The translations under genes were made by a program, and so were the position numbers. Positions 7,301-64,000 of a stretch of 64,000 bases of DNA are shown piece by piece (the stretch's first letter is position 1; each line of letters begins with the position of its first letter). Origin of the DNA: a virus; the IMG/VR virus record IMGVR_UViG_3300017917_004576, positions 32,001-96,000 of that record; one strand, written 5' to 3'. The notes beneath the pieces were generated by a model. That model was given only the letters and a program-made list of their open reading frames with translations. It was not told the origin of the DNA and ran no database searches.

Positions 7301-10300
7301 GGGCGAATTTTATGGAGGTGATGAACAACTTATATCAAAATCAATTTCTAATTCTATGATAATTGATGAGGCTCGTGCTGATAAAATTATTGCTAACTTA
7401 GAATCATCTAGATCACAGTTGCCATTATTTAAAAAACTATTTTCAGAAAAATCGTCTTCTGTTGGTGTTTTAAATGGATTTCCAATAGCCAGGTATGGTG
7501 CTATTGGTGGTACTGAGACTATGAGATTTGATGAACTAAAAGACGAAGAAACTATTAGAGAGTTTATAAAAAGAGGAAAATTAGCAACACAAGCTTCGCG
7601 TGGTCCGGTTGGTAAACGCATAGTTTATGGTGATCAAAAAGCAGCAAGACGAAGGTTTGCGGTTGGCGGAACAGTAGAGGGCATAGCTGCTAAAGAAAAA
7701 AAATCTATTGAAACTGTAATTTTAGAACAATTATCCAGTTTTGGAGATGCTAGCGGAGTTAAAAAAATACTAGGATTAGGAGCTGGAGAAAGAGAGATTA
7801 GCTCTATATTGAATGCTAGTAATATTAGAGCCGGTAAAAACATAGAAAAAGCTATTAAATTTATAAATAGGGCGCTAGCTAAGACAGGAAAACAAGATGC
7901 TGCTAGAGAAGCAAAAGAAGCAGCCATGAGAAAAGTTGCAATTGCCGGATTATTTCCATTAGATTATAATAAAGATTTTTCAGACTGGAAGTTGGAAGAT
8001 GGTAGAGAAATTTATGGTTATGTTAGAGGATTTCAATCTAGCTTTTTACCACAAATAGAAGCTATGCAAGAGGCCAATAGAGCTACTCGTCAAAAATTTG
8101 CTGAAGATATTCAAGATACGGCAGCATTAGGCGGATTAGGTAATAGAAATATTCAGGGGCCAATTCAACCATTAGCAATAGATTTTGATGAAACACTAGC
8201 TCTTGGAACAAAAATGCTAGATGAAAATGGCGAAGAAGATTTACCAGCCTACTCTGATAGAAAAAAAGTTATGGAAAGTCTAGCCCAAGCTAGACCAACC
8301 TCACTAGCTAAAAGATTGGCCAGTATAGAACAAAAAAATCCTGGATATGTTAGGATGTTTAGTCGTATCTTAACGGCCCGTCCTCAAAGTACGGCGGATA
8401 TTATAGCATCAACTCTTAATAGGTTCGGATTACCATATTTAGAACAAGATGTTACTGGAGTTAGTCAAGGACTAGGAACAAATATAGCAAAAGCTAAAGC
8501 CGCTGATGTTGCAAGAGCCGAAAAATTAATCGATGATAATGAAAAAAATATTAGAGCAACAATGGCTGCTGGTAAAAGTACTTTTCGTTATGGTGAAGTA
8601 CCAGAGCTCAAAGGACCAGCAGAAGAAAAATTTGGACAATCTAATATTGAAGGAGGTATGCTAGAAGCAGCATTATCACAATTATTGGGCTATAATATAA
8701 ATGTTGATGCTTTACAAAGAAATAGAGCGATTGATTTTCCTAATGGCCTAGGCAGAGGCGCTCAACTTTTTGGATTACCTCCGAATATTGAAACAGAAGT
8801 AAAAAGAACTTTGGACGGAGACAGTTTTTCAAAAGCCAGAGAAGAATTTAGTAGATACTTTAAAGAAAATCCACAAGCCTTTGCTAAAGGAGGAACAGCA
8901 ACATTTGGTTCTGGAGCATTTAAATTCCCCAAAAGAATAAGTAATGCTTATGTTCGGGAAATGGAAAAATTATTAGAACAAGAACAAATGGAAAAGGTTT
9001 TTTCAACATATCCTGGTAATGAAAGAATGGTTGTGGACGAGGAGGCTGTGAAAAAAGGATATGAATCTCCTTTTACTAGAGAACTATTCATAAATTCGTT
9101 TAAGGATAAAATAAATAGAAATACAGTTTTTGAAAGAATGGGGCAATTTGCGCGAGTTATAGGATTGCCACCCACCGATCTTTTATCTGCAATACCAACT
9201 CAATTAGACTTTGGTGTTAATTATCCTGCTACAGCATTATTTAGCAAGGATCCTTCTGGCCCAGGAACCAGGGGACTACAAGGAGTGGATCTGACACCAT
9301 ATGGTTATACTGAACAAGATAAACAAGATTTATTCGGATATACTAAACTAATAGAAGAAAAAAAGAAACAAATATTAAAAACAATTAAAACTCCTGTTAC
9401 AACATATGAAGATGGTAGTTTTAGCTATGATACGGCTTTAGCAGAAAAACTAAGAGCAGAATTAGACGATTTACAAAAACAACAAAGATCTCTTATTGAT
9501 AAAAACAATGCGGCTATCAAAGCTGCAAAAGAATCCAGACTACAATCCGCAAACCAGAGTGGTCGTGGTAGCGTTGGCATAGCGACGAATCCATTTAATA
9601 CAAGTCAACGTCAAGATTATAGTATTTTGTATCATGAATTAACTCATCAACTTTTTAATAGTCTTAGAACTAAAAACGCTCAATCATTCGAAGCATACAA
9701 GGCAAAAGTTTCTAGTTTATTTAGTGGAAACAATGATGATGTGGCCGATGCTTTTGATGCTCTGGTTGGAAATACAGGATATAATAGTGCTGATGTCGCC
9801 TATGGAAGAAGTTATAAACTTAGTGGACTAAGCAGCTTGATGATAGGATCAGCCAAAGAGTCATTTGCAAAATATGTTAATAGTGATCCAGAATATATTC
9901 CAGAATTAAGAAAAACTTGGGCAGCAACTAATTCTACAACAACCGCCAAAGCTTTTAAACCACTGAATCCTAAAGTTAATGATATTTTATTAAGAGGTAA
10001 AATAAGCCAAGATGTTATAGATAAATATGAAGATAATGGTAAAGAAGAATTTTTAACAACATTAATACAAAAATTACCATTATTAGATGAAAATCTAAGC
10101 GGAGTTTTGGATAGTACTCTGGATGACCTATTGGGAGGTGCTGGAATAAGTAGACAAAAATTTGCTCTCGGTGGATTAGCAGATTCTAAAGATGCTATGT
10201 CTGGATTAATGCAAGGATTATATGGAAATAGAAATCAACAAACAGACAAAAAAGAAAAAGATTTTGGGAAAATAAGCATTACAGAAGATGGCGATATGCT

Positions 10301-31567: not shown

Positions 31568-33571
31568 ATGGTATACAATCAATTAAATTTACAACAAGAT
31601 AATTTTACTACTCAGAGTGTTGGGAATACACCTAGGATAGTAATAAATTATAATGGAATTGATATTCATAGTATAACTGGACCAGTTCCTGTTGTTGATA
31701 TTAGTTATAGTTTTAATAATAATGGTAATGATCTAGCCGAAAGCGTAACAACAAATGTAACTCTTATTGGTAAAATTCTTAGATGGCCAGAAGGTCAAAA
31801 TATTGGTGGTGTAGATACTAATAAAGCAATGCCAGGATTTAGTGGTATTATAGCTGGTGTTAGTGGATTGAGAAAAATTTTTACAGACGAACCGTATGGT
31901 GTTCTGAAATTTAAGTGCGGCTCTTCAATATTACATGAAATAAGTGGATTAAGAGCACGAGATATACAAATTAATAATACAGAAGATAATTGGGCGCAAA
32001 CTGCGGACTATACAATTACTTTGGAAGGATCAGAAAGATTGTGGAGCGGAAGTGGCGATGATGCAATAGAAGCATTTGTTACAGAAAGACAGGACACATG
32101 GAATATCGAACCTTTAGACGACAGCACATACACAAATTTCACCAGATCTGTTACAGGAAAATACGAGTATAGTAATCCTAAGCTTAACAGACCACAAGGA
32201 GCCGGGGCAAATTCGTTCAGCACTCCCGGAGGACCATCATCAGAAACAAATTCTTTGCGAGTTACTAATATTCCGCAGTTTCGTATAACTAGAAGACTGT
32301 CCGCCAAAGGATCTGTTAGACCAAATGATCCGGCCGGGAAAATATCTAGATCGAATCTATATGATGAAAATACAAAACCTTATGTTTTTGCCAAAACATG
32401 GGTTGAGAATATGGCAAAAAAGAGTTTTCAAACATCGGATATAACAAATAATAGTTCTCCATATTTTAAAAATCCTTTTGATCAAAATTTATTTGCTTTT
32501 AATCATAATAGAACAATTAATATTGATATATATAATGGTACATACGAGATTAATGATACTTGGCTGGCAATGCCAAGCGGTATCCCATATACCGAAACTT
32601 ATACTTTGGAAACATCTACTGGAGAAGATTATATTAGAACAGTAAGGGTAGCTGGTACCATAGTGGGCTTAGTAATATCAGATCACGGATTAATGACAAA
32701 TAGTGGCGTTTTAGTTAGCGGCACTGGCAACGGTGGAGATATAAATTCTGCACTAAGACTAGATAACTATGCTGTTAATGGACAAAATTATGGAACCGCC
32801 TATAGTTCTCTAGATATGACCACCCCCACTTTTGGACAACCAACCTCTGCTTTAACGCCACAGTCTATATCTGGTACAAAATATGATAATGCTCGTAATG
32901 CTTGGCTAGAACATATTAAACCGATGCTTTATAGGAGAGCGTGTCTAGCTGTTAATAGTCCAGATAGAACAATGACCTATACTCCATCTTATCCTACAAA
33001 TCCTCCAACAGTTCCTAATAATCCTATATATAGTCAAGAAACATTATTAAGTACAATTCCCGTAAATACAAGCGAAGGACACGATCCGAGGAAAGGAACG
33101 ATTAATTATAGTTATGAATATAGTAGTCGATTAACAATTATTAGTGGTGTAATTAGCGAAAATATTAGTGTTAATTATGATAATCCTATAGATAGTACCA
33201 CAGAATTAAATATTATAGGTAGAGCTTTGGGTCCAATAATACAAAGAACCGGAAGATCTTTGCCTAAAAAAACAATTAGTATAGAAATAGGAATAATGCC
33301 AATAACAGGAATTAATCAATTATCTATCAATAGTCCAGAATGTCCGATGCACAAAAGCGGCTATCTTTTTCAAACTATCGAAAAAATTATAGAGGCACAT
33401 AGACCATATTCTCCAAGTAATTTCTTGACTAATGAACCAATACAGACCGAGGGTTTGGTGTATACATCTCAGGATGGTGAAACATGGAATCCTACTGCTG
33501 GAAAGTATTCTAGAAATGTTAGCTGGACATATCAGCAACTTTCAATAACAAGAGATTTTAGGGACCATTAA
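31568..33571 (+). CDS. Putative distal-tail/baseplate structural protein
   Basis: 667 aa, rich in beta strands (DYTITLEG, GTINYSYEY, GKYSRNVSWTY). Precedes the large hub-like gene; function inferred from position. Confidence 0.45.
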   Translation: MVYNQLNLQQDNFTTQSVGNTPRIVINYNGIDIHSITGPVPVVDISYSFNNNGNDLAESVTTNVTLIGKILRWPEGQNIGGVDTNKAMPGFSGIIAGVSGLRKIFTDEPYGVLKFKCGSSILHEISGLRARDIQINNTEDNWAQTADYTITLEGSERLWSGSGDDAIEAFVTERQDTWNIEPLDDSTYTNFTRSVTGKYEYSNPKLNRPQGAGANSFSTPGGPSSETNSLRVTNIPQFRITRRLSAKGSVRPNDPAGKISRSNLYDENTKPYVFAKTWVENMAKKSFQTSDITNNSSPYFKNPFDQNLFAFNHNRTINIDIYNGTYEINDTWLAMPSGIPYTETYTLETSTGEDYIRTVRVAGTIVGLVISDHGLMTNSGVLVSGTGNGGDINSALRLDNYAVNGQNYGTAYSSLDMTTPTFGQPTSALTPQSISGTKYDNARNAWLEHIKPMLYRRACLAVNSPDRTMTYTPSYPTNPPTVPNNPIYSQETLLSTIPVNTSEGHDPRKGTINYSYEYSSRLTIISGVISENISVNYDNPIDSTTELNIIGRALGPIIQRTGRSLPKKTISIEIGIMPITGINQLSINSPECPMHKSGYLFQTIEKIIEAHRPYSPSNFLTNEPIQTEGLVYTSQDGETWNPTAGKYSRNVSWTYQQLSITRDFRDH

Positions 33572-55362: not shown

Positions 55363-57002
55363 ATATCATTCTTTAAATGTGCATATTGTATAAAGTCTTC
55401 TTCAAATTTAATATTTTTTTGTCTGACTTCTTCTGATCTATTATTATTATCTATCATAGTATTGATATGATCGCATAAATTATTTATACCATATCCAGAG
55501 ATTTGTGTTGGAGATACATAATGGAAACCATAGTCTGCATTCTGAAGCATATTCAAAAACTTGAAAGACGATAAAAGTTCACTATTCTTCATCGTATTAT
55601 TGCATAGGTTAATGAATTGTGAAAAATTAGAATCCTTATTAGATATGCTCGCTTTGCGCAAGATTGGTAGAGGTTTGGACCAGTCTGCTCTAAAGTCTAG
55701 ATTATCAAAATAATTCTCCCAAATTTTTGCAATATTATCCCAGTTATAATATTTTTCTGTTAAATTTCTTATTCGAACTCTATTATTATTTCTAATAGAT
55801 ATTGGTTTATCTAATTCTTTTAGTATAATATCAATTAGGCAATCATTATCTGGATATACTCTAATAGCTTTTGTTTCGAGTTCTTTGAAATATGTTTTAA
55901 TTTTTATTGGATATGCTTCTAATTTTGATATGATATCTATCATAGCACTATATTCTACGGTTGCTATTGGGACACCACAAGCGGCGGCTTCGACTTGAGG
56001 CATACCAAATCCTTCGCATATAGCATATTGAACATATAAATCAAATGTATTGTAGATTATACTGAGTTGTTCGTCAGTAACGCCTTGAGATACAGATGGA
56101 AATTGCGATGATTTATTAAAACATTTTGAGCATACTTTTTGAGGTCCACAGTATACACAGCTCTCTATATTAGAACAGTTCTTACATAGGTATGTAAAAA
56201 GAACATTATTAGATATTTGATGATCATTTAGCAACTCAGGGATATCCCACCCCATGTCCGGATATGTTGTATGTAGATATAGAAATATTTTATCAGATCG
56301 TTTTTCTTTCTCAAAAATGGATAATATTTTTTTAAAAGAAACTAAAAGCTCCGGAATAAGTTTTCTTTTTTGGTTTCTCATAACAGAACCAACTATAAAT
56401 ACATCATTATCTATGCCCAGAATTTGTCTACAACTATTTTTATCCTTAATATTAAAAATATCTAAATCAACACCAGGACTAGCAGTAGCAATATATTTTA
56501 TTTTATCATTAGTTTGCTGTTTAAGGATTTGAGCGCCCCAATCACTATATGTAAAAATAGCATCTGTTGATAGAAATACATCTACCCACTCTTCTTGTTG
56601 CGGTGCAGAATCTACTGTGGGCATGAGAATATGATGAAAATAAGATCTTAAAGGGGATAGAGTTTGGTATCCACTCATCCAAAAATCTCTAACATCAACC
56701 ACAATATCTGGCTTAAAATCTAATAGAACCTTTTCGAATCTCCATTTTCCAAATTGATTATCTGTCCTAGACATATATTCTTTATATCTAGGATCGTTGT
56801 CCCTTACGGCATTAGCATAATAAATCCAATCTATATTTTTATCTCTCGGATCATTAACCATCCCATAAGAAGCAAATTCTGCAACAATATATTTATTGGT
56901 TTTATGCCATCTCGATAATATTTGTTTTGCATATTTTCCAAAACCAGAATTTATGAAACTAGCTTCGGAACACATCAATATTTTTAATTTAGATTTTACC
57001 AT
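55359..57002 (-). CDS. GT4-family (GT-B) glycosyltransferase with Zn-ribbon-like insertion
   Basis: KILMCSEA...SGFG, FKPDIVV, SPGVDLDIF, MRNQKRK, YNTFDLYVQYAICEGFGMPQVEAAACGVP and YNWDNIAKIW. Insertion CKNC...CVYC...CSKC. Confidence 0.85.
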   Translation of the reverse strand: MVKSKLKILMCSEASFINSGFGKYAKQILSRWHKTNKYIVAEFASYGMVNDPRDKNIDWIYYANAVRDNDPRYKEYMSRTDNQFGKWRFEKVLLDFKPDIVVDVRDFWMSGYQTLSPLRSYFHHILMPTVDSAPQQEEWVDVFLSTDAIFTYSDWGAQILKQQTNDKIKYIATASPGVDLDIFNIKDKNSCRQILGIDNDVFIVGSVMRNQKRKLIPELLVSFKKILSIFEKEKRSDKIFLYLHTTYPDMGWDIPELLNDHQISNNVLFTYLCKNCSNIESCVYCGPQKVCSKCFNKSSQFPSVSQGVTDEQLSIIYNTFDLYVQYAICEGFGMPQVEAAACGVPIATVEYSAMIDIISKLEAYPIKIKTYFKELETKAIRVYPDNDCLIDIILKELDKPISIRNNNRVRIRNLTEKYYNWDNIAKIWENYFDNLDFRADWSKPLPILRKASISNKDSNFSQFINLCNNTMKNSELLSSFKFLNMLQNADYGFHYVSPTQISGYGINNLCDHINTMIDNNNRSEEVRQKNIKFEEDFIQYAHLKNDI

Positions 57003-57008
57003 TATGGA

Positions 57009-57045
57009 ATAGAATAAGGGGGATATTTCACCCCCAATATTCTAT
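57009..57045 (-). terminator. Hairpin/terminator between ssb and GT4 gene
   Basis: GGGGG-N8-CCCCC stem extended by ATAGAATA/TATTCTAT. On the minus strand it is followed by a T-rich tract. Confidence 0.5.
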
Positions 57046-57065
57046 ATACATTCCTTTAGGTTTGG

Positions 57066-57434
57066 TCAGAAAGCAACCGGTTCTGATTCTTCGGTCTTTG
57101 ATCTACTAAGCTTAGTAATCTTTGAAAAGTTATTAACTCTAACCTTTAGACTACTATGCTTAACTCCATCCTTTTCCCATGTATCGTTTCTAAGGGACCC
57201 CTCAACCATAACCAGATCACCTTTCTTTAGTGACTCAGCAATAGTTTCGGCTCCGCTATCCCATGCTTCGCAATTAATAAAAGATGTAATTCGATCTTTT
57301 TCTCCATTCGATTTTACATAATCCCTATTAACAGCAATGGTAAAATTTACCACACTAGTTTGTTTTCCATTTGGATTAACAACTCTTAACTCAGGATCTC
57401 GTGCAAGATTACCCTTCAACAATGTAATATTCAT
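57066..57434 (-). CDS. ssb: Single-stranded DNA-binding protein
   Basis: MNITLLKGNLARDPELR...NFTIAVNR...FINCEAW...KKGDLVMVEGSLRNDTWEKDG. GGAG RBS before ATG 57434. Short acidic tail EESEPVAF. Confidence 0.95.
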   Translation of the reverse strand: MNITLLKGNLARDPELRVVNPNGKQTSVVNFTIAVNRDYVKSNGEKDRITSFINCEAWDSGAETIAESLKKGDLVMVEGSLRNDTWEKDGVKHSSLKVRVNNFSKITKLSRSKTEESEPVAF

Positions 57435-57475
57435 TTTCAAAACTCCTAAAAGTAAAAACGCTACAACTATACAAT

Positions 57476-57503
57476 ATTATACCAAGCGGCAGCGTTTTGT
57501 CAA
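57476..57503 (-). promoter_or_regulatory. Consensus sigma70-type promoter for ssb
   Basis: Minus strand reads TTGACA (57503-57498), a 16-nt spacer ending TGG (extended -10), then TATAAT (57481-57476). It overlaps the dnaE piece-3 stop. Confidence 0.8.
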
Positions 57504-59113
57504 GACCTTGGTATAAAACATTTTTCTACTATAAAAGAATCTTTTTTAGGACTCTTATTACCTAGAAATATTAGTACATTTCCTTCAAACAGATAGTTTC
57601 GGTATTTAGATAATTGATCAGGAAATAAGATGACCGAGTCTAAGGACGCATATTGATCCTCTATCGTAACAAAAGCCATTTCTGCACCAGCATTTTTCCC
57701 ATTCTTTGTTTTAACAAAATTTATATTACTAATTTCACCAGCCAAAATAATATTTTTAATATTATTGGTATGTTTAAATATTTTGCAATCACAGTTTGTC
57801 ATGCTGATATCGTATGAATCTATTTTAAAACAGGTAATGGATGCTCCAAGCAACGCATTTTCTGTATCAGATAACCATTCTATTTTATCATTTAATGAGT
57901 ATGGTGGATTTTCATATAGCTTAATTAAATTTTGTATATTAGTTTTTCGTTTAGTATTGATCTTACTATTAGTTAGCAAATTCTCTAAAACTTGTCCTAG
58001 ATGTTTTTGGTTTATATCTAAAAGATCTAATTCTCTAGATGTTAATTCCGATATTATATCATACTCGAATAACATTTGTGTGCGTGACATATGATAATAA
58101 TCAAGAGCGCCACATGATATTAGCGCCTTAGCGGCTGTAGAGTTTATTTTATTGAGTAATTTTACTAAGCAGCCATACCATGATATGGAATTAAGATCAA
58201 TATTTTTGACTATCTCTATGATCTTATCATATACCGAATAACCAACCCCTTTTATATCTGTTAAGCCAAAATAAATTTTATCATCATTTATGGTAAAATG
58301 CTTATTAAGTTTTCTTAAATCTGGAACGCAAACAGTAACATCCATTTCTGTGGCGTTCCTGATTAATTCCTTGATTTCTTTTTGTGGATCCATCTTGTCT
58401 TTTGCGAACTTTAAATATGATGCAAAAAACACTTTCGCGAAGTGGGCTTTAGCATATGCTGATGAGTATGCATTCATAGCATAGCTTACAGCGTGACTCT
58501 TATTAAAACTATATCTTTGACTTTTTTCTATCCAACCAAAAATTTCTTCGCTCTCATCTTCCGATACAATATTAAGTTTTTTAACACCGTCTTTGAATTT
58601 AACTTTGATTTTGGCCATTTCTTCTGGTTTCTTTTTGCCTATAGCCTTACGAAGCATATCGGCCTCTTGAAGATCGAATCCAGCCACCGCCTGCGCGATT
58701 TGCATAGCCTGTTCTTGGTAAATCATCTCGCCATAGGTCGATTTTAATGAAGGCTCAAGAGAAGGGTGAAAATAGTCTAATTCTTCTTGACCATTTTTTT
58801 TATCTATATAATGATCACTAATACTTTTGCCTTCCCTATATGCCTCTAACGATCCTGGTCGCATAATACTAATTAACGCAGAAAGCTGCTCTATATTCTG
58901 TGGTTTAAGTTTTTTGGACATACTAGAGCCTAGTCTGGACTCTAATTGAAAAACTCCTTTTGTATTTCCTTGCGCTATCATATCCCATGTTTTGGAACAT
59001 TCTAGATTTAGATTTTCTAGTTTGCCATCGAAATCTATTCTAGGAATACCATCATTGGTATAGTCCAATACTTTAAATTTACAACCACAATCAAACGTAT
59101 AGTGATTATTCAT
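57500..59113 (-). CDS. dnaE: DNA polymerase III alpha, piece 3 (fingers, HhH, OB fold)
   Basis: GNTKGVFQLES, LISIMRPG, TYGEMIYQEQAMQIA, ADMLRKAIGKKK, YSFNKSHAVSYA, IYFGLTDIKGVG, MAFVTIED. Confidence 0.92.
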   Translation of the reverse strand: MNNHYTFDCGCKFKVLDYTNDGIPRIDFDGKLENLNLECSKTWDMIAQGNTKGVFQLESRLGSSMSKKLKPQNIEQLSALISIMRPGSLEAYREGKSISDHYIDKKNGQEELDYFHPSLEPSLKSTYGEMIYQEQAMQIAQAVAGFDLQEADMLRKAIGKKKPEEMAKIKVKFKDGVKKLNIVSEDESEEIFGWIEKSQRYSFNKSHAVSYAMNAYSSAYAKAHFAKVFFASYLKFAKDKMDPQKEIKELIRNATEMDVTVCVPDLRKLNKHFTINDDKIYFGLTDIKGVGYSVYDKIIEIVKNIDLNSISWYGCLVKLLNKINSTAAKALISCGALDYYHMSRTQMLFEYDIISELTSRELDLLDINQKHLGQVLENLLTNSKINTKRKTNIQNLIKLYENPPYSLNDKIEWLSDTENALLGASITCFKIDSYDISMTNCDCKIFKHTNNIKNIILAGEISNINFVKTKNGKNAGAEMAFVTIEDQYASLDSVILFPDQLSKYRNYLFEGNVLIFLGNKSPKKDSFIVEKCFIPRS

Positions 59114-59118
59114 AAATA

Positions 59119-59820
59119 TTATGCAGATGCTGTGGCGAAGGCGTTTTTGAATTTAACCTTATTACCAAGATTTCTATGAAGTTTCATAAATCTAATGAGA
59201 ATATCAGCGGTGGCTCTTACATCGTTTAACGCATCATGAGATCCGCTATTGCCAAGACCTAAATATTCTCTAACATTATCTAATGTATAGTTTTTTAGTT
59301 CGTTATTTCCTTCGAACCAATAAAATATCACATTCATTAAATCTATAACGTCTCGGGGATAAAAAAGAGATGTTCTTCCCTCCTTATTGACATTATTGTA
59401 TTTGGTACTTAGTCTTTCTATGATTCTAAGATCGAATCTATTTATATTGTATCCAGCGGCTATGGGCGCTGTAAAACAAGATTTTTTATCTGATCTTATA
59501 TGATATTTCTCTAAATAAGATACGAACATTTTCCATCCATTATCCTGATTTTGATAAGATTTCCAATCCTCTAATATTTTAGTTTTTTCACATCCTCTAA
59601 CCTTAGCATGGAAATCAAGAACATCACTATCATCATATATATAGTCAGGTTTTTCATCCAATATAGATGGTTTTAGATTAATATTAAATTCTGAATCTTT
59701 GATAATTTCTAATTTATATGGATCTATTATCAGAGAAGCGATTTGAACGGGGCTGCAAAGGTCGGGATTAGCCCCGTCCGTTTCTAAATCAAACACACAA
59801 ATTTTTTGTAAATTAGCCAT
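59119..59820 (-). CDS. dnaQ: DEDDh 3'-5' exonuclease (DNA Pol III epsilon-like)
   Basis: ExoI VFDLETDG, ExoII AGYNINRFD, ExoIII SHDALNDV. Confidence 0.85.
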   Translation of the reverse strand: MANLQKICVFDLETDGANPDLCSPVQIASLIIDPYKLEIIKDSEFNINLKPSILDEKPDYIYDDSDVLDFHAKVRGCEKTKILEDWKSYQNQDNGWKMFVSYLEKYHIRSDKKSCFTAPIAAGYNINRFDLRIIERLSTKYNNVNKEGRTSLFYPRDVIDLMNVIFYWFEGNNELKNYTLDNVREYLGLGNSGSHDALNDVRATADILIRFMKLHRNLGNKVKFKNAFATASA

Positions 59821-59995
59821 TTGTCTCCACTACTGTGTTTCCTGGGAAAAAAGTCCTTTGATTACTATCTGTAACAACGTGACAATTAGCGCTTCTGCAA
59901 CAACTTACTCTAACCTCTTGGATCTTAGTATACTCTACATTATTAACTTTAAAATTTTCGCCTACAGCAACTTGATCTAATGTTTTTGTTAACAT
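59813..59995 (-). CDS. Small beta-rich hypothetical protein (60 aa)
   Basis: Coupled to dnaE piece 2 (TAATG overlap) and overlaps the dnaQ start; contains SCCRSANC. Confidence 0.6.
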   Translation of the reverse strand: MLTKTLDQVAVGENFKVNNVEYTKIQEVRVSCCRSANCHVVTDSNQRTFFPGNTVVETNG

Positions 59996-60879
59996 TATAG
60001 TTCTCCATTTTTTAAGTATTCTGATACAGACATGATTTTGTCTAAATAAGCTATACCCAATATATCAAATTTAATTAAACCCAAACTCTCTAGATCATTC
60101 ATCTCCATGCCTGCTATCAGCTGATCATTTCTATTATCATAGACCATAGGACACAGAGATGCAAGATCTTCAGTACCTATTATTACACCAGCAGCATGTT
60201 TGCTTTGATTAGATTTTGTTCCTTCGAGTCTTATGGCCTGTTCAAATCTTTTTGATAATGGGCCAGCCAACGAACCATCTTCTGCTATATAGCACCATTC
60301 TTTCAGTTTATCTGTGTTATTCTCTAAAGCCCATCTAATAATCGAGGCTTCTCCGGTATCTTCTTTCATCTCTTGAAGCTCGTCGGCTATTTTGGCTTCG
60401 TCAGGAATAAATTTAGTAATAGAATTCATTTCTTCGAAAGATATATTACCATATACTCTTAGTACATCTTTTAATGCCCCTCTACCTTTCATAGTATTAA
60501 AAGTAATCATTTGTGATACTTTGCCATGTCCATATTTACTTTTTATATATTCTAATACTTGTTCTCGTTTATCTATTGGAATATCTATATCGATATCTGG
60601 CATTTGTATTCTGGCTGGAATGCTTTGTATTGGGCGAGTATTATCAAGCTGATCGACAATACCATATATCCACATTATATAACTATTAATAGTGTTTTCG
60701 GATAAAATATTTTTATTTACTATTATATGATTATAGTATGATATATTTTCTGGAGCCGAAAGAACTATAGAGCATTCATGTTCAAGAAATCTATTATTTT
60801 TTTCTTGTTCTAACCTTTCGATTATAGGCTGGCTTTTAATCTCATGTACTAGTCTAGTAAGTGTAGAATTTTTTTCCAT
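59995..60879 (-). CDS. dnaE: DNA polymerase III alpha, piece 2 (palm catalytic aspartates, thumb)
   Basis: MPDIDIDIP, KYGHGKVSQMITF, ALKDVLR, AIRLEG...SKHAAGVII and GLIKFDILG, preceded by an ~90-aa atypical extension. Confidence 0.9.
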   Translation of the reverse strand: MEKNSTLTRLVHEIKSQPIIERLEQEKNNRFLEHECSIVLSAPENISYYNHIIVNKNILSENTINSYIMWIYGIVDQLDNTRPIQSIPARIQMPDIDIDIPIDKREQVLEYIKSKYGHGKVSQMITFNTMKGRGALKDVLRVYGNISFEEMNSITKFIPDEAKIADELQEMKEDTGEASIIRWALENNTDKLKEWCYIAEDGSLAGPLSKRFEQAIRLEGTKSNQSKHAAGVIIGTEDLASLCPMVYDNRNDQLIAGMEMNDLESLGLIKFDILGIAYLDKIMSVSEYLKNGEL

Positions 60880-61667
60880 TTGTAGTCTATATATAAATGA
60901 TTGTTTAGTAAATATTTTGCTATAACTTTAATTTCACTCTTGTTTTGGTATATTAACTGATATAAGTCTCTATTTTTTATTTTTGTTGGTTTTTTATATT
61001 TTACAGGCAAGGCTTTGGACACTGTTTCCAAATTTTCTGGAAGATATGAACATATACCTATGTTGTAACCAGTGTAGACTTTATTTTTATTGGTTTGTTT
61101 TTTTATACTAACCCATCCATCAGCATCCCAATATCCTCTTATAAAATCTGGCCATAATAATTGATCCGACGGTAATTTTAAAGTACTATACCATGTTTTT
61201 CTTGGTATAATACCATATTTTGATATATTATTTGCTAAAATATCGCTAGTAAATTGAAATGTACACCTATTATCGTAGTCTTTTACTATATTAGAGCCTA
61301 TTAAAAATTTAGAAAATTTAATCAAATGTTTTTTTGATTCTGACCCCAAGCATAATTGTAGCTTATTACTATCACTAATATTTCCATCGCCAAAAATAAA
61401 ACCAAGCCAATAAGCTGATGCGGCATCTAATTTAGAAAAATCATTTAATAATTTTTTTTTACTATTTTTAGTAAATCTAGTTGATTTTGCTAAACAACCA
61501 CAACTTTTAACATGGTTAATCTTTATCATAGATAGTTTCTTATAACAGATATTGCCGCATTTACATTTACACTTAGCAATTGTTTCTCCTTTACTATCCG
61601 GAACTAAAGTTATTATAGTAAGTAAATTATAACTCTTATTTTTATAGTCTTTTATTTTAGTTTTCAT
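60849..61667 (-). mobile_element. Free-standing LAGLIDADG homing endonuclease gene inserted in dnaE
   Basis: Two LAGLIDADG motifs (AYWLGFIFGDGNI; DFIRGYWDADGWV) and an N-terminal CKCKCG...KSCGC module. GGAGG RBS before ATG 61667. Confidence 0.9.
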
Positions 61668-61689
61668 ATTGCCTCCGGAATTATACTGT

Positions 61690-62988
61690 TTATACACCAT
61701 TCTTAAATGTTTGTATAGAAAATTCCGGAAAAGATATGTGTTCTTTTACATTCCTGCCATCGGAATAAAATCTTTCAAATAGTAATTCATGTTTAATAGG
61801 ATCTATATCTGTAATACCTATTAAATAAGAAACCAAGCATCCGGCTGCGCTTCCTCGTCCTGGTCCTGCTAACCAATTATTATTTTTAACATGTCTTAGT
61901 ATGTCTTGAACAATTAGAAAATAACTACTAAGCCCAGCATTTTGCAAAACCTGTAGTTCATATTTTATTCTATCAACATAAATATCGTGTTGTGATTTGT
62001 CAATATTCGGTATAATTCTATTTTTCCAACCTTTTCTACATAATTCTCTTAAATATTCATCCGGAGAGAATCCTTCGGGACATTCGAATTTAGGCAATTT
62101 AGGTGGCGATAGTATATCAAAATTTTCTATTAGACTATCCACAAATAAAGTGTTTTCTATCTCTTCGTCATTATGAAGAGTTTTCATTTCTTCTGGAGAC
62201 AGAATATAGTATTTGTCGCTTTTAAAGAAACACTCCATAGGTACAGATTGATTATGAAGCATCTTAGTATTTATATCTGATAATGTTGTTTTAAGATTAT
62301 TACAGAGTAATATTCTTTGATCTATAGCATCATCTTGTTCGCAATAATGGGCATCCGGTGTGCATACCGCTTTTGTTTTACTTAATTGAGAGATTCTTCT
62401 TATTGTATCTGTTAAATATGTTTGTTGTTTTAGATATGCTTGATCAAATAGTTGTGTCTCTAGAAAAAAATTATCATTACCAAATATAGTTTTCATATAA
62501 TCTACAAAAGATAATCCATTATCTATAGCTTTGGATTCGTCGCATAATATCTTATCTGCTAATGTTGATCCCAAATGTCCACAGATACCTATAATATTAC
62601 CGTCTAGTATTTCTGCTAATTTTGCCAGACTTAAACGTGGCTTATGATAAAAGTAATCGGGTCTGTTAGATTCGGAAACAATCTTTATTAAGGTTTTCCA
62701 TCCTTGCAAATTCTTCGCCAATACCAAAAAATGTGATAATGAAGCATTTTCTTTTGTTTGTATACTCGGATCATCTTCACATATATATAATTCACAACCA
62801 AGAATTGGTTTTATATTTTTATTTCGCATTTTCTGATAGAATTGTACAGAACCGGCGATGTTCCCGTGATCGGTTAAGGCGCAAGAATTAATGCCTAACT
62901 TAGAACATCTATTGGCTATTTGTTCTGGACGATTAAGACCATCCAAAAGACTAAAATGCGAATGACAATGAAGAACAGAATAGGTCAT
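61690..62988 (-). CDS. dnaE: DNA polymerase III alpha, piece 1 (PHP domain plus start of palm)
   Basis: LHCHSHFSLLDG, ALTDHGN, KPILGCELY, HFLVLAKN, TPDAHY, YFLIVQD and GPGRGSAAGCLVSYLIGITDIDP...LLFERF; stops before PDIDxD. Confidence 0.92.
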   Translation of the reverse strand: MTYSVLHCHSHFSLLDGLNRPEQIANRCSKLGINSCALTDHGNIAGSVQFYQKMRNKNIKPILGCELYICEDDPSIQTKENASLSHFLVLAKNLQGWKTLIKIVSESNRPDYFYHKPRLSLAKLAEILDGNIIGICGHLGSTLADKILCDESKAIDNGLSFVDYMKTIFGNDNFFLETQLFDQAYLKQQTYLTDTIRRISQLSKTKAVCTPDAHYCEQDDAIDQRILLCNNLKTTLSDINTKMLHNQSVPMECFFKSDKYYILSPEEMKTLHNDEEIENTLFVDSLIENFDILSPPKLPKFECPEGFSPDEYLRELCRKGWKNRIIPNIDKSQHDIYVDRIKYELQVLQNAGLSSYFLIVQDILRHVKNNNWLAGPGRGSAAGCLVSYLIGITDIDPIKHELLFERFYSDGRNVKEHISFPEFSIQTFKNGV

Positions 62989-64000
62989 ACTGATCCTGGT
63001 GCTTTGTAAGATCCAAAAGAATGATTCGGGTGTTTGTACATACTCATTGTAGCATCGATCCCGTAAAGTTCAAGGTCGTGCTTGACTTGTTCGCACTTTG
63101 TCATGACAGATCCTTTTTGACATATTTGTCCATCTCTATACTCCTGCAAAGGTTCTATATTAGTATTCTCAAAAGTGGTTTTACCAAAATGACATAATTT
63201 ATTACACATCCATGTTTTATTAAGTTTAGGTCGTTTTGTTTTCTTAATAATATCAAATTTTTCTCTTAGCATATTCTCTGTATCTATTAAATCACTATCG
63301 TGAAATACCATAGAAAAAGGACCACCATCATTAATAAAGTAGATAGAAAAAATTACATTTTCAATATGCGGATATAATTTTTTAATAGCATAGTGATAAA
63401 TTTTGAGTTGTGGATCTTTCTCTAACTTTTCTTGGGTTTTTTCTTGACCGGTTGCCCAATCTAGTCTTCGTCCAGTATTATGTGTTGGAATATAATTTTC
63501 TGTACACAGATAAGTATTGTCTGGACTGTCTACGGAAATGCATTGAGTTTTTTGTATAATCGATTCTTCTATTTTAGAAACTCGTCTAACCCTAGATCTT
63601 CCAGATCCCCAATTTACATCCACAAGTTCTTTTTTCCTGTTCAATAGAAAAGGATTAATATCAATTGGACGAAACGAAATAGGATATATGATTATGTTTT
63701 TTTTGTAATTTGTATCTCTTTTAATACACGCTTGATTCGGTCTTTGCCCAAGGGTTAAAAGTAGGTCTTTAACATCGTCGGATAGTTTTTTATTACAAGA
63801 AGTAAAGATGGTTTGTTTTCTAATTGGATTTACATTTCCGTCTGTATCCATCAAACCCCTTAGTAAGTCTAGTCTTTGTTGAAAAGATGCTCTCAAATAA
63901 ATTTTTGGTATATGTTTATTATTCAATAGCTTTAAAGATTTTAGTATTTTTGTCACATTTAGGATCGATACTGTCTTATTTTTTGATCTTTTATCATTTT
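62985..64000 (-). CDS. Intein-containing PD-(D/E)xK (Cas4/RecB/AddB-like) exonuclease, 5'-truncated by the window
   Basis: Frame is open to the window edge. The C-extein begins TGRRLDW and contains DPQLKIYHYA (QLxxY) and WMCNKLCHF...C. Confidence 0.7.
   Translation of the reverse strand, partial: NDKRSKNKTVSILNVTKILKSLKLLNNKHIPKIYLRASFQQRLDLLRGLMDTDGNVNPIRKQTIFTSCNKKLSDDVKDLLLTLGQRPNQACIKRDTNYKKNIIIYPISFRPIDINPFLLNRKKELVDVNWGSGRSRVRRVSKIEESIIQKTQCISVDSPDNTYLCTENYIPTHNTGRRLDWATGQEKTQEKLEKDPQLKIYHYAIKKLYPHIENVIFSIYFINDGGPFSMVFHDSDLIDTENMLREKFDIIKKTKRPKLNKTWMCNKLCHFGKTTFENTNIEPLQEYRDGQICQKGSVMTKCEQVKHDLELYGIDATMSMYKHPNHSFGSYKAPGSV
63477..64000 (-). mobile_element. Intein (C-terminal part) with LAGLIDADG endonuclease
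   Basis: Block E LLRGLMDTDG, block F TQCISVDSPDNTYL, block G IPTHN followed by Thr (+1) at 63476-63474. Confidence 0.9.

Follow-up and report, generated by a model that had tools for sequence, protein, structure and literature searches.

Analysis of a 64,000-nucleotide (nt) stretch of viral DNA, referred to here as the window (positions 32,001 to 96,000 of the IMG/VR virus record IMGVR_UViG_3300017917_004576), uncovered a gene for the C-family replicative DNA polymerase DnaE whose catalytic palm is divided by a free-standing LAGLIDADG homing endonuclease gene. The parent record is 120,068 bases long and estimated to be 82% complete; the window is AT-rich (24-37% G+C in 2-kb windows), and near-identical DNA occurs in metagenome runs from pond, lake, freshwater and subsurface sources. 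The open reading frames (ORFs) of the locus follow one another on the minus strand in the order Cas4-like gene, DnaE piece 1, LAGLIDADG_3 gene, DnaE piece 2, a 60-amino-acid (aa) ORF, DnaQ-like exonuclease, DnaE piece 3 and single-stranded DNA-binding protein (SSB). Piece 1 (432 aa; 61690-62988) carries the PHP domain (Pfam E 1.4e-34) and the N-terminal part of the palm with the motifs GRGS (61849-61860) and LLFERF, and then runs into a 13-residue C-terminal tail (FPEFSIQTFKNGV; 61693-61731) and a stop codon, so that its C-terminus reads ...LLFERFYSDGRNVKEHISFPEFSIQTFKNGV. The endonuclease gene (272 aa; 60849-61667) encodes an N-terminal Cys-rich region and two LAGLIDADG motifs. Piece 2 (294 aa; 59995-60879) opens with a 92-aa, predicted helical N-terminal extension (60604-60879; motifs YY.HII.N and NSYIMW) and continues as the C-terminal part of the palm, with MPDIDID (60583-60603; residues 93-99) and KFDILG (60055-60072).

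The insert sits between the codons for LLFERF..RIS and those for MPDIDID, and consists of the 13 tail codons, the endonuclease gene and the 92 extension codons. The Pfam profile DNA_pol3_alpha is cut at this point: its positions 1-99 match piece 1 residues 311-413 (E 3.1e-32), and positions 96-260 match piece 2 residues 88-275 (E 8e-39). All C-family DnaE domains (PHP, palm, fingers, HhH and OB) and the catalytic aspartates are present, spread over three ORFs, and the nucleotide-binding GRGS motif and the catalytic aspartates are encoded on different ORFs. The AlphaFold2 (AF2) model of piece 2 has a mean predicted local distance difference test (pLDDT) score of 90.5, and its residues 95-294 superpose on residues 421-609 of chain 5lew_A (Z 13.9, root-mean-square deviation 2.8 over 178 residues).

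The same arrangement is found in five other near-identical viral contigs and two metagenome contigs, and in each of two metagenome runs (X2 and X8) a single contig crosses the whole stretch. Given this recurrence, the split is not an assembly accident. In a further run (X6) the assembly is broken at 60574-60603 and 61957-61986, and the middle piece has a word depth of 29 against 61-68 on its flanks; this pattern would agree with a mix of genomes with and without the cassette, but it was not counted, since depth of contigs is an unsound measure. Run X12 shows two joints with sides of 20-27 letters, which are probably noise. Several 31-letter contigs of run X8, with word depths of up to 600, map to 60971-61003 within the endonuclease gene and probably reflect a short word shared with other abundant DNA.

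With the endonuclease protein alone as query, only near-identical viral and metagenome loci were retrieved; an alignment query recovered diverged relatives, and a query of the viral and metagenome loci with an alignment of the extension added only L095. Three of the diverged relatives carry the same three-part insert at the same site, their piece 1 being 64% (L044), 46% (L045) and 36% (L046) identical to that of the window and their endonucleases 55%, 42% and 48%, respectively. The tail is missing in uninterrupted relatives and kept in all split ones, and it is conserved as protein across the window and L044-L046 (ISFPEFSIQTFKNGV, ISFPEFPIKDFNSSV, VSFEEFSYNKFVFGV and ISFSEFSYKDFISNGV), keeping its amino acids despite many nucleotide changes and its stop codon at the same place. 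The extension, which has no counterpart in uninterrupted relatives, likewise evolves as protein: between the window and L044 the proportions of nonsynonymous and synonymous differences (pN and pS) are 0.371 and 0.639 (dN/dS ~0.36), compared with 0.148 and 0.654 for the rest of piece 2 and 0.241 and 0.647 for piece 1. AF2 predicts a confident helical fold for the extension (pLDDT 77-94).

The endonuclease itself belongs to a family of 268-273-aa proteins, with 37 homologues at E<=1e-3, and matches Pfam LAGLIDADG_3 with 34.2 bits (cut-off 22.5) and PDB entry 2dch_X at E 5.9e-8; G104-D105-G106 and D192-A193-D194-G195 are invariant across 12 homologues. Its listed ORF spans 60849-61700, but homologue alignment confirms the ATG at 61667 as the actual start, 22 nt after the stop codon of piece 1 and preceded by a GGAGG Shine-Dalgarno sequence (61672-61676). 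A predicted minus-strand RNA hairpin (61665-61738; main stem 61721-61731 with 61672-61682) covers the piece 1 stop and buries this GGAGG, its 5′ arm being formed by the tail codons (-20.3 kcal/mol, z -4.1, none of 200 shuffles as good). In relatives the Shine-Dalgarno sequence pairs with upstream sequence of differing letters, with z -2.0 in L046 and no significant structure in L044 and L045. Piece 1, the endonuclease gene and piece 2 are probably co-transcribed, since no minus-strand terminator was found in the locus; in the same scan, promoter and terminator sites were no more numerous than in shuffled sequence. The sequence-only reading from which this analysis started had described a dnaE gene split by a LAGLIDADG gene with its own ribosome-binding site, a 22-nt gap on one side, a downstream piece overlapping the endonuclease stop on the other, and GRGS and the catalytic aspartates on separate ORFs; ORFs, Pfam matches, motif positions and the homologue alignment bear out this anatomy.

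At its 3′ end the endonuclease gene overlaps piece 2 by 31 nt. In the window and in each of L044-L046, piece 2 begins 30-48 nt before the endonuclease gene ends, and in three lineages its ATG is drawn from the conserved (K/I)W codons, which suggests that the two overlapping reading frames (endonuclease end and piece 2 start) have co-evolved. A fusion of endonuclease and piece 2 by frameshifting or read-through was considered and rejected: with respect to the endonuclease, piece 2 lies in frame -1 in the window, L044 and L045 but in +1 in L046, and the four share no common slippery site.

Since phage homing endonuclease genes often reside in group I introns, the endonuclease ORF might be carried by a cryptic intron whose splicing from the mRNA restores ...HIS-MPDIDID. 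The would-be 5′ exon could end in U (..ATATCT), and the Rfam group I model misses some introns. With permissive filters, however, Rfam scans at E<=10 found neither a group I nor a group II intron in 7,001 nt of the window (57000-64000) or in the 1,351-nt insert (60500-61850), and no intron family matched at E<=1 in a total of 30,545 nt from L044, L045, L046 and L095, diverged relatives that carry the same insert or module. The base preceding ATGCCAGAT is A and not the terminal G needed by group I introns, and only ~40 nt precede the endonuclease ORF. Only the 276 nt that separate the endonuclease stop from MPDIDID could accommodate an intron core. In 4/4 diverged lineages they form an open frame with invariant residues; pN is lower than pS, the predicted fold is confident, and no RNA structure is conserved across four lineages (RNAalifold consensus -2.2 kcal/mol, 15 pairs in 276 columns). 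The tail and its stop codon, too, are conserved as protein. Judged by these sequence comparisons and the fold model, the tail and extension region is protein-coding rather than intron, and we regard a cryptic intron as extremely improbable.

A profile of the extension, searched against 1.84 billion representative proteins, gave 36 clusters at E<=1e-3, 27 of them at E<=1e-10. By our own sorting of its position, the extension forms the N-terminus in 30 of the 36 (20 proteins measure 255-304 aa; the other 10, at 533-1171 aa, are fusions of pieces 2 and 3) and is internal in two (P0051 and P0073), the remainder being three fragments and one doubtful match. The end of piece 1 (codons 340-432) was used as a second query and the best 120 hits were examined. 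Of these clusters, 18 are 417-437-aa proteins ending in the tail, ..(I/V)SF(P/T)EF(S/P)x..(G/S)(V/I), 70 are uninterrupted, FERF being separated from the catalytic motif by 12 residues, and 32 were left unparsed by the pattern used. The adjoining tract takes the form FYS.GRNV.EH(I/V)S in every one of the 18 tail-bearing proteins, and for five of them the longest contig has the same size as for endonuclease homologues.

Tail and extension also occur together without the endonuclease. P0051 (689 aa; its locus is L095), P0073 (678 aa) and L029 (780 aa) carry the module in-frame in a contiguous DnaE N-half, with tail and extension as one ~100-residue helical insertion. In P0051 and P0073 the whole N-half is followed in-frame by a tail-like FSEYPY or FDEYPY segment and then the extension; the AF2 model of the fused P0051 module is helical (pLDDT 79). 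In L029 the in-frame insertion measures ~115 residues and occupies the position of the cassette. The likeness of this insertion to the extension of the window is marginal (99 of 2000 shuffles as good). Directly after its DnaE N-half, L029 also encodes an HNH-type endonuclease (9315-9953), whose N-terminal Cys motif is shared with the LAGLIDADG protein, and no exonuclease or piece 3 was found in its next 6 kb.

Naturally split inteins with very short N-fragments exist, and a degenerate or atypical split intein of this kind, with a long C-fragment, could ligate the halves by protein trans-splicing. The layout of half gene, free-standing endonuclease and half gene matches that described for ‘fractured genes’, which include three DnaE loci (PMC2677866). 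The junction residues, however, are not those of inteins. In 41 aligned sequences the junctions read ..IS|F(P/E/S)EF.. and ..(S/A/Q/T..)|(M/L/I)(P/A)D(I/V)D; the residue before (M/L/I)PDID varies among S, A, Q, T, E, I, N and Y, the +1 residue is M, L or I, and there is no nucleophile at the first residue of a would-be intein, no conserved Cys, Ser or Thr at +1 and no conserved terminal Asn or His-Asn. No Hint or intein Pfam family was found in four extensions at E<=10 or in P0051, P0073 and L029 at E<=1. The AF2 models of the module contain helices only, not a beta-rich fold, and no intein appeared among the fold-search rows, where absence does not exclude a family. The fused forms keep the module in-frame with ends that are no more intein-like. 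Genuine inteins in this polymerase family would be recognisable, because P0047 and P0065, homologues that join extension, piece 2 and piece 3, contain ordinary inteins with C...HN|S ends in the fingers region. P0047 apparently carries another intein at the FNKS motif, and by sequence the same polymerase family is host to several kinds of selfish insert. A split intein at the dnaE junction is in our judgement very unlikely, and we infer that nothing is spliced at either the RNA or the protein level.

Among 29 related viral loci that were compared, there are 20 at which pieces 1 and 2 are a single ORF of ~620 aa and the whole module is missing, with piece 1 residues 1-420/425 and piece 2 residues 89-93 onward mapping to overlapping DNA; the uninterrupted locus L007, for example, reads ..LLFERFYNAGRNTKDRISMPDIDIDIP.. 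at this point. The remaining nine comprise five with the insert at 99% identity, three that are cut short, and L029. A tree built from piece 1 residues 1-340, in which the window is identical to the cassette-free L007, places it in a clade of seven rows (support 100/99) whose other six lack the module, and pairs the cassette-bearing L044 with the cassette-free L020 (support 91/93). Compared as DNA, the window and L007 share 98.9% identity in codons 1-344 and 97.5% downstream of the insert, but only 76.9% in codons 345-419 (61732-61956), the tract beside the insert. Within this tract L007 is 76-79% identical to its clade mates and the window 69-74%, and the window is closer to L044 (76.9%) than it is upstream (64.9%). 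The simplest reading of these comparisons, which they suggest, is a recent import of the cassette together with a co-converted upstream flank, the signature of homing, and the diverged tract would probably be that flank; a reverse exchange, in which the cassette was replaced in L007, appears less likely.

The fused proteins raise the question of whether the module is instead an old, lineage-specific insertion domain of DnaE with its own function, into a loop of which a LAGLIDADG gene landed, the halves holding together as parts of one folded domain. The in-frame, endonuclease-free modules of P0051, P0073 and L029 and the compact helical unit seen in the model speak for such an origin. Set against it, the module is missing in six of the seven rows of the clade of the window and arrives with the endonuclease and a diverged flank, and the fused forms are rare (2/36 clusters), lie on long branches and could equally be derivatives that lost the endonuclease. 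We consider the insertion-domain origin rather unlikely; it differs from the cassette scenario only in origin and not in how the split enzyme works.

It is also conceivable that the split polymerase is inactive and decaying and that host enzymes copy the phage genome. The 120-kb record contains no polymerase of family A or B; at 82% completeness another polymerase could lie in the missing part. Against decay, all catalytic motifs are intact, pieces 1 and 2 are under strong purifying selection, and the split form persists down to 36% identity and in 18 tail-bearing clusters, so that we give this explanation hardly any probability. The sequence-only reading had seen neither intron nor intein, had noted little room for an intron core, had named pseudogene-like decay as the outcome that would speak against it, had proposed a comparison with endonuclease-free relatives, and had pointed to mobE in nrdA of Aeromonas phage Aeh1 as the nearest precedent. 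The searches, the protein-like behaviour of the 276-nt stretch, the selection on both pieces and the 20 uninterrupted loci all fall in line with it, and Aeh1 proved the right comparison (PMC3045599). What comparison among sequences adds is that tail and N-terminal extension are a conserved module that travels with the endonuclease and is also found fused in-frame, and that close relatives are uninterrupted.

Together these results make it probable, by analogy with Aeh1 NrdA and mobE, that a mobile cassette of tail, endonuclease gene and extension splits dnaE and that the resulting pieces assemble non-covalently into an active polymerase. In such a scenario, a cassette would have invaded dnaE of an uncultivated freshwater phage, its first ~13 codons becoming a C-terminal tail on the upstream half, its middle part being the LAGLIDADG gene with its own ribosome-binding site, predicted to be masked by the hairpin, and its last ~90 codons becoming a helical N-terminal extension on the downstream half. 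The pieces would be translated independently, and the two halves would associate non-covalently with the separate exonuclease and the fingers/OB piece, tail and extension most likely acting as a docking module. Both the association and the docking role are modelled on Aeh1 NrdA, where the tails are essential; the fused proteins, in which tail and extension are predicted to form one helical domain, fit fragment complementation. The endonuclease would presumably cut the uninterrupted allele at the conserved PDIDID-coding site, and repair would copy tail, endonuclease, extension and some upstream flank, converting a one-gene palm into a two-gene palm.

Several observations weigh against this scenario. 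The fused, endonuclease-free forms could mean that the endonuclease landed in an older insertion domain, and the direction of the exchange between the window and L007 rests on modest differences in identity. Lack of splicing was judged from DNA sequence. Piece 2 has no recognisable Shine-Dalgarno sequence in the window, a point tempered by the other genes there, since 17 of 28 ORFs of at least 150 aa lack a clear one and 11 have it. As for the binding mode, the tail part of the module model is only moderately confident (pLDDT ~63), and tail and extension show no consistent charge complementarity, the tail being aromatic and hydrophobic.

Where the module came from is a more tentative matter. 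The tail (ISFPEFSI) resembles the catalytic strand (ISMPDIDI), and in a fold search with the module model seven C-family polymerase chains were among the top nine of 48,161 chains. In all seven, the module falls on the palm helices that immediately precede the catalytic strand (Z 2.7-4.5); the same seven match piece 2 at Z of at least 5 and are all the C-family polymerase chains seen in the structure set. It is possible, if doubtful, that the extension represents decayed palm helices and the tail a decayed catalytic strand, so that the halves re-dock by a domain-swap-like complementation. Tail, LAGLIDADG gene and extension would then make up a gene-splitting cassette complete in itself, which homes into uninterrupted dnaE and divides the polymerase within its active site; in function it would correspond to an intein, but one without splicing. 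A Foldseek search of PDB with the module model returned no matches at E<=10. Sequence comparisons for a tandem-duplication origin of the extension were negative, leaving only the fold search as a hint of duplication, and that origin is not put forward as a finding: in a Smith-Waterman comparison of the extension with piece 1, 1078 of 2000 shuffles scored as well, and against 11 palm-N sequences hhalign gave a probability of 1% with four extension sequences and E 0.16 with 38.

Among known systems, the closest is nrdA-a/mobE/nrdA-b of phage Aeh1, followed by the split-intein fractured genes and by the split gp43 of Aeromonas phages. In Aeh1, experiments proved that the split enzyme functions and that its tails are indispensable (Crona et al. 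2011, PMC3045599), and the case is described as unique among 1200 nrdA sequences (PMC3045599). As far as the passages compared go, the two systems share catalytic residues on two polypeptides, unique C-terminal and N-terminal tails missing in uninterrupted homologues, and a free-standing endonuclease ORF that lies between collinear halves and overlaps the downstream one (PMC3045599). They also share an RNA structure that restrains endonuclease expression, here a predicted hairpin, and the lack of RNA or protein splicing, here deduced from sequence (PMC3045599). They differ in the host enzyme (ribonucleotide reductase in Aeh1, a C-family replicative polymerase here) and in the endonuclease (HNH there, LAGLIDADG here). 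The downstream tail here is predicted to be a folded helical domain of 90 residues, while charge complementarity is seen only in Aeh1; and the cassette here is found again in many diverged lineages, exists in fused versions that lack the endonuclease and bears marks of a recent transfer into an uninterrupted allele. Function, proven in Aeh1 (PMC3045599), is here deduced by analogy.

The fractured genes (Dassa et al. 2009, PMC2677866), compared through passages of the text, have the same half gene, free-standing endonuclease, half gene order in phage-type replication enzymes from aquatic metagenomes, with hairpins upstream of endonuclease genes and overlapping reading frames. Unlike the present locus, in which the endonuclease is LAGLIDADG and no Hint motif was found, those passages describe all six Hint motifs with catalytic residues and GIY-YIG or Vsr-like endonucleases (PMC2677866). 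The insertion sites of their DnaE loci (Supplementary Table S1, PMC2677866) may bear on the split site reported here. Gene 43 of Aeromonas phages 25 and 44RR (43A/43B) and the T4 topoisomerase genes 39/60 with mobA are likewise phage replicative or DNA enzymes divided into two cistrons with a free-standing endonuclease, and their pieces co-purify and are active (review PMC2988022). There, the polymerase is of family B, the split site is another one, the endonucleases are of the seg/mob type (GIY-YIG/HNH), and the passages compared mention no travelling adaptor module (PMC2988022); T4-type free-standing endonucleases are GIY-YIG or HNH, in contrast to the LAGLIDADG protein of the window. Cyanobacterial DnaE is also made from two genes, but from separate loci, with a split intein at a different site and no endonuclease between them (PMC2677866, in the part compared).

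A literature search, largely without subscription journals, found no publication on this dnaE split. New here are the host enzyme, the split site, the size and predicted fold of the adaptor, the recurrence across lineages, the fused endonuclease-free versions and the close cassette-free sister genome. The usual view is that homing endonucleases persist in essential genes because introns or inteins conceal them. To our knowledge, Aeh1 NrdA, in a single phage, has been the only well-studied exception. With the present locus, a solution that uses neither intron nor intein would extend to the catalytic core of a replicative polymerase of family C, and it recurs among many diverged lineages of freshwater phages. 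Three questions can now be put to a direct test: whether free-standing endonucleases generally bring along adaptor sequences as an ‘antidote’ to the fragmentation of genes, how two chains can rebuild the active site of a polymerase, and whether such modules could serve as natural docking parts for split proteins. For annotation, ‘DnaE fragments’ of 430 aa and 290 aa in phage metagenomes can be functional halves and not pseudogenes.

The rest of the polymerase operon, also on the minus strand, contains a second break in DnaE (57500-59995). Piece 2 ends just past KFDILG and is followed by the conserved 60-aa ORF (59813-59995), the DnaQ-like exonuclease (59119-59820; RNase_T, E 4.3e-9) and piece 3 (57500-59113), which has the fingers (E 6.3e-48), HhH and a weak OB match. 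Related loci that extend over this part have these genes in the same order, down to an identity of 45% (L030 and L031, in which the 60-aa ORF finds no match). Other lineages join extension, piece 2 and piece 3 in a single protein, such as the 816-aa P0038. Upstream of piece 1, the Cas4-like gene (62985-63998, minus strand) runs off the end of the window; one segment of its product resembles an intein, matching LAGLIDADG_3 and ending in ...THN|T. Matches to the Cas4-like protein are confined to residues 170/175-337 in 14 of the 29 related loci, so that this segment is present in some genomes and missing in others.

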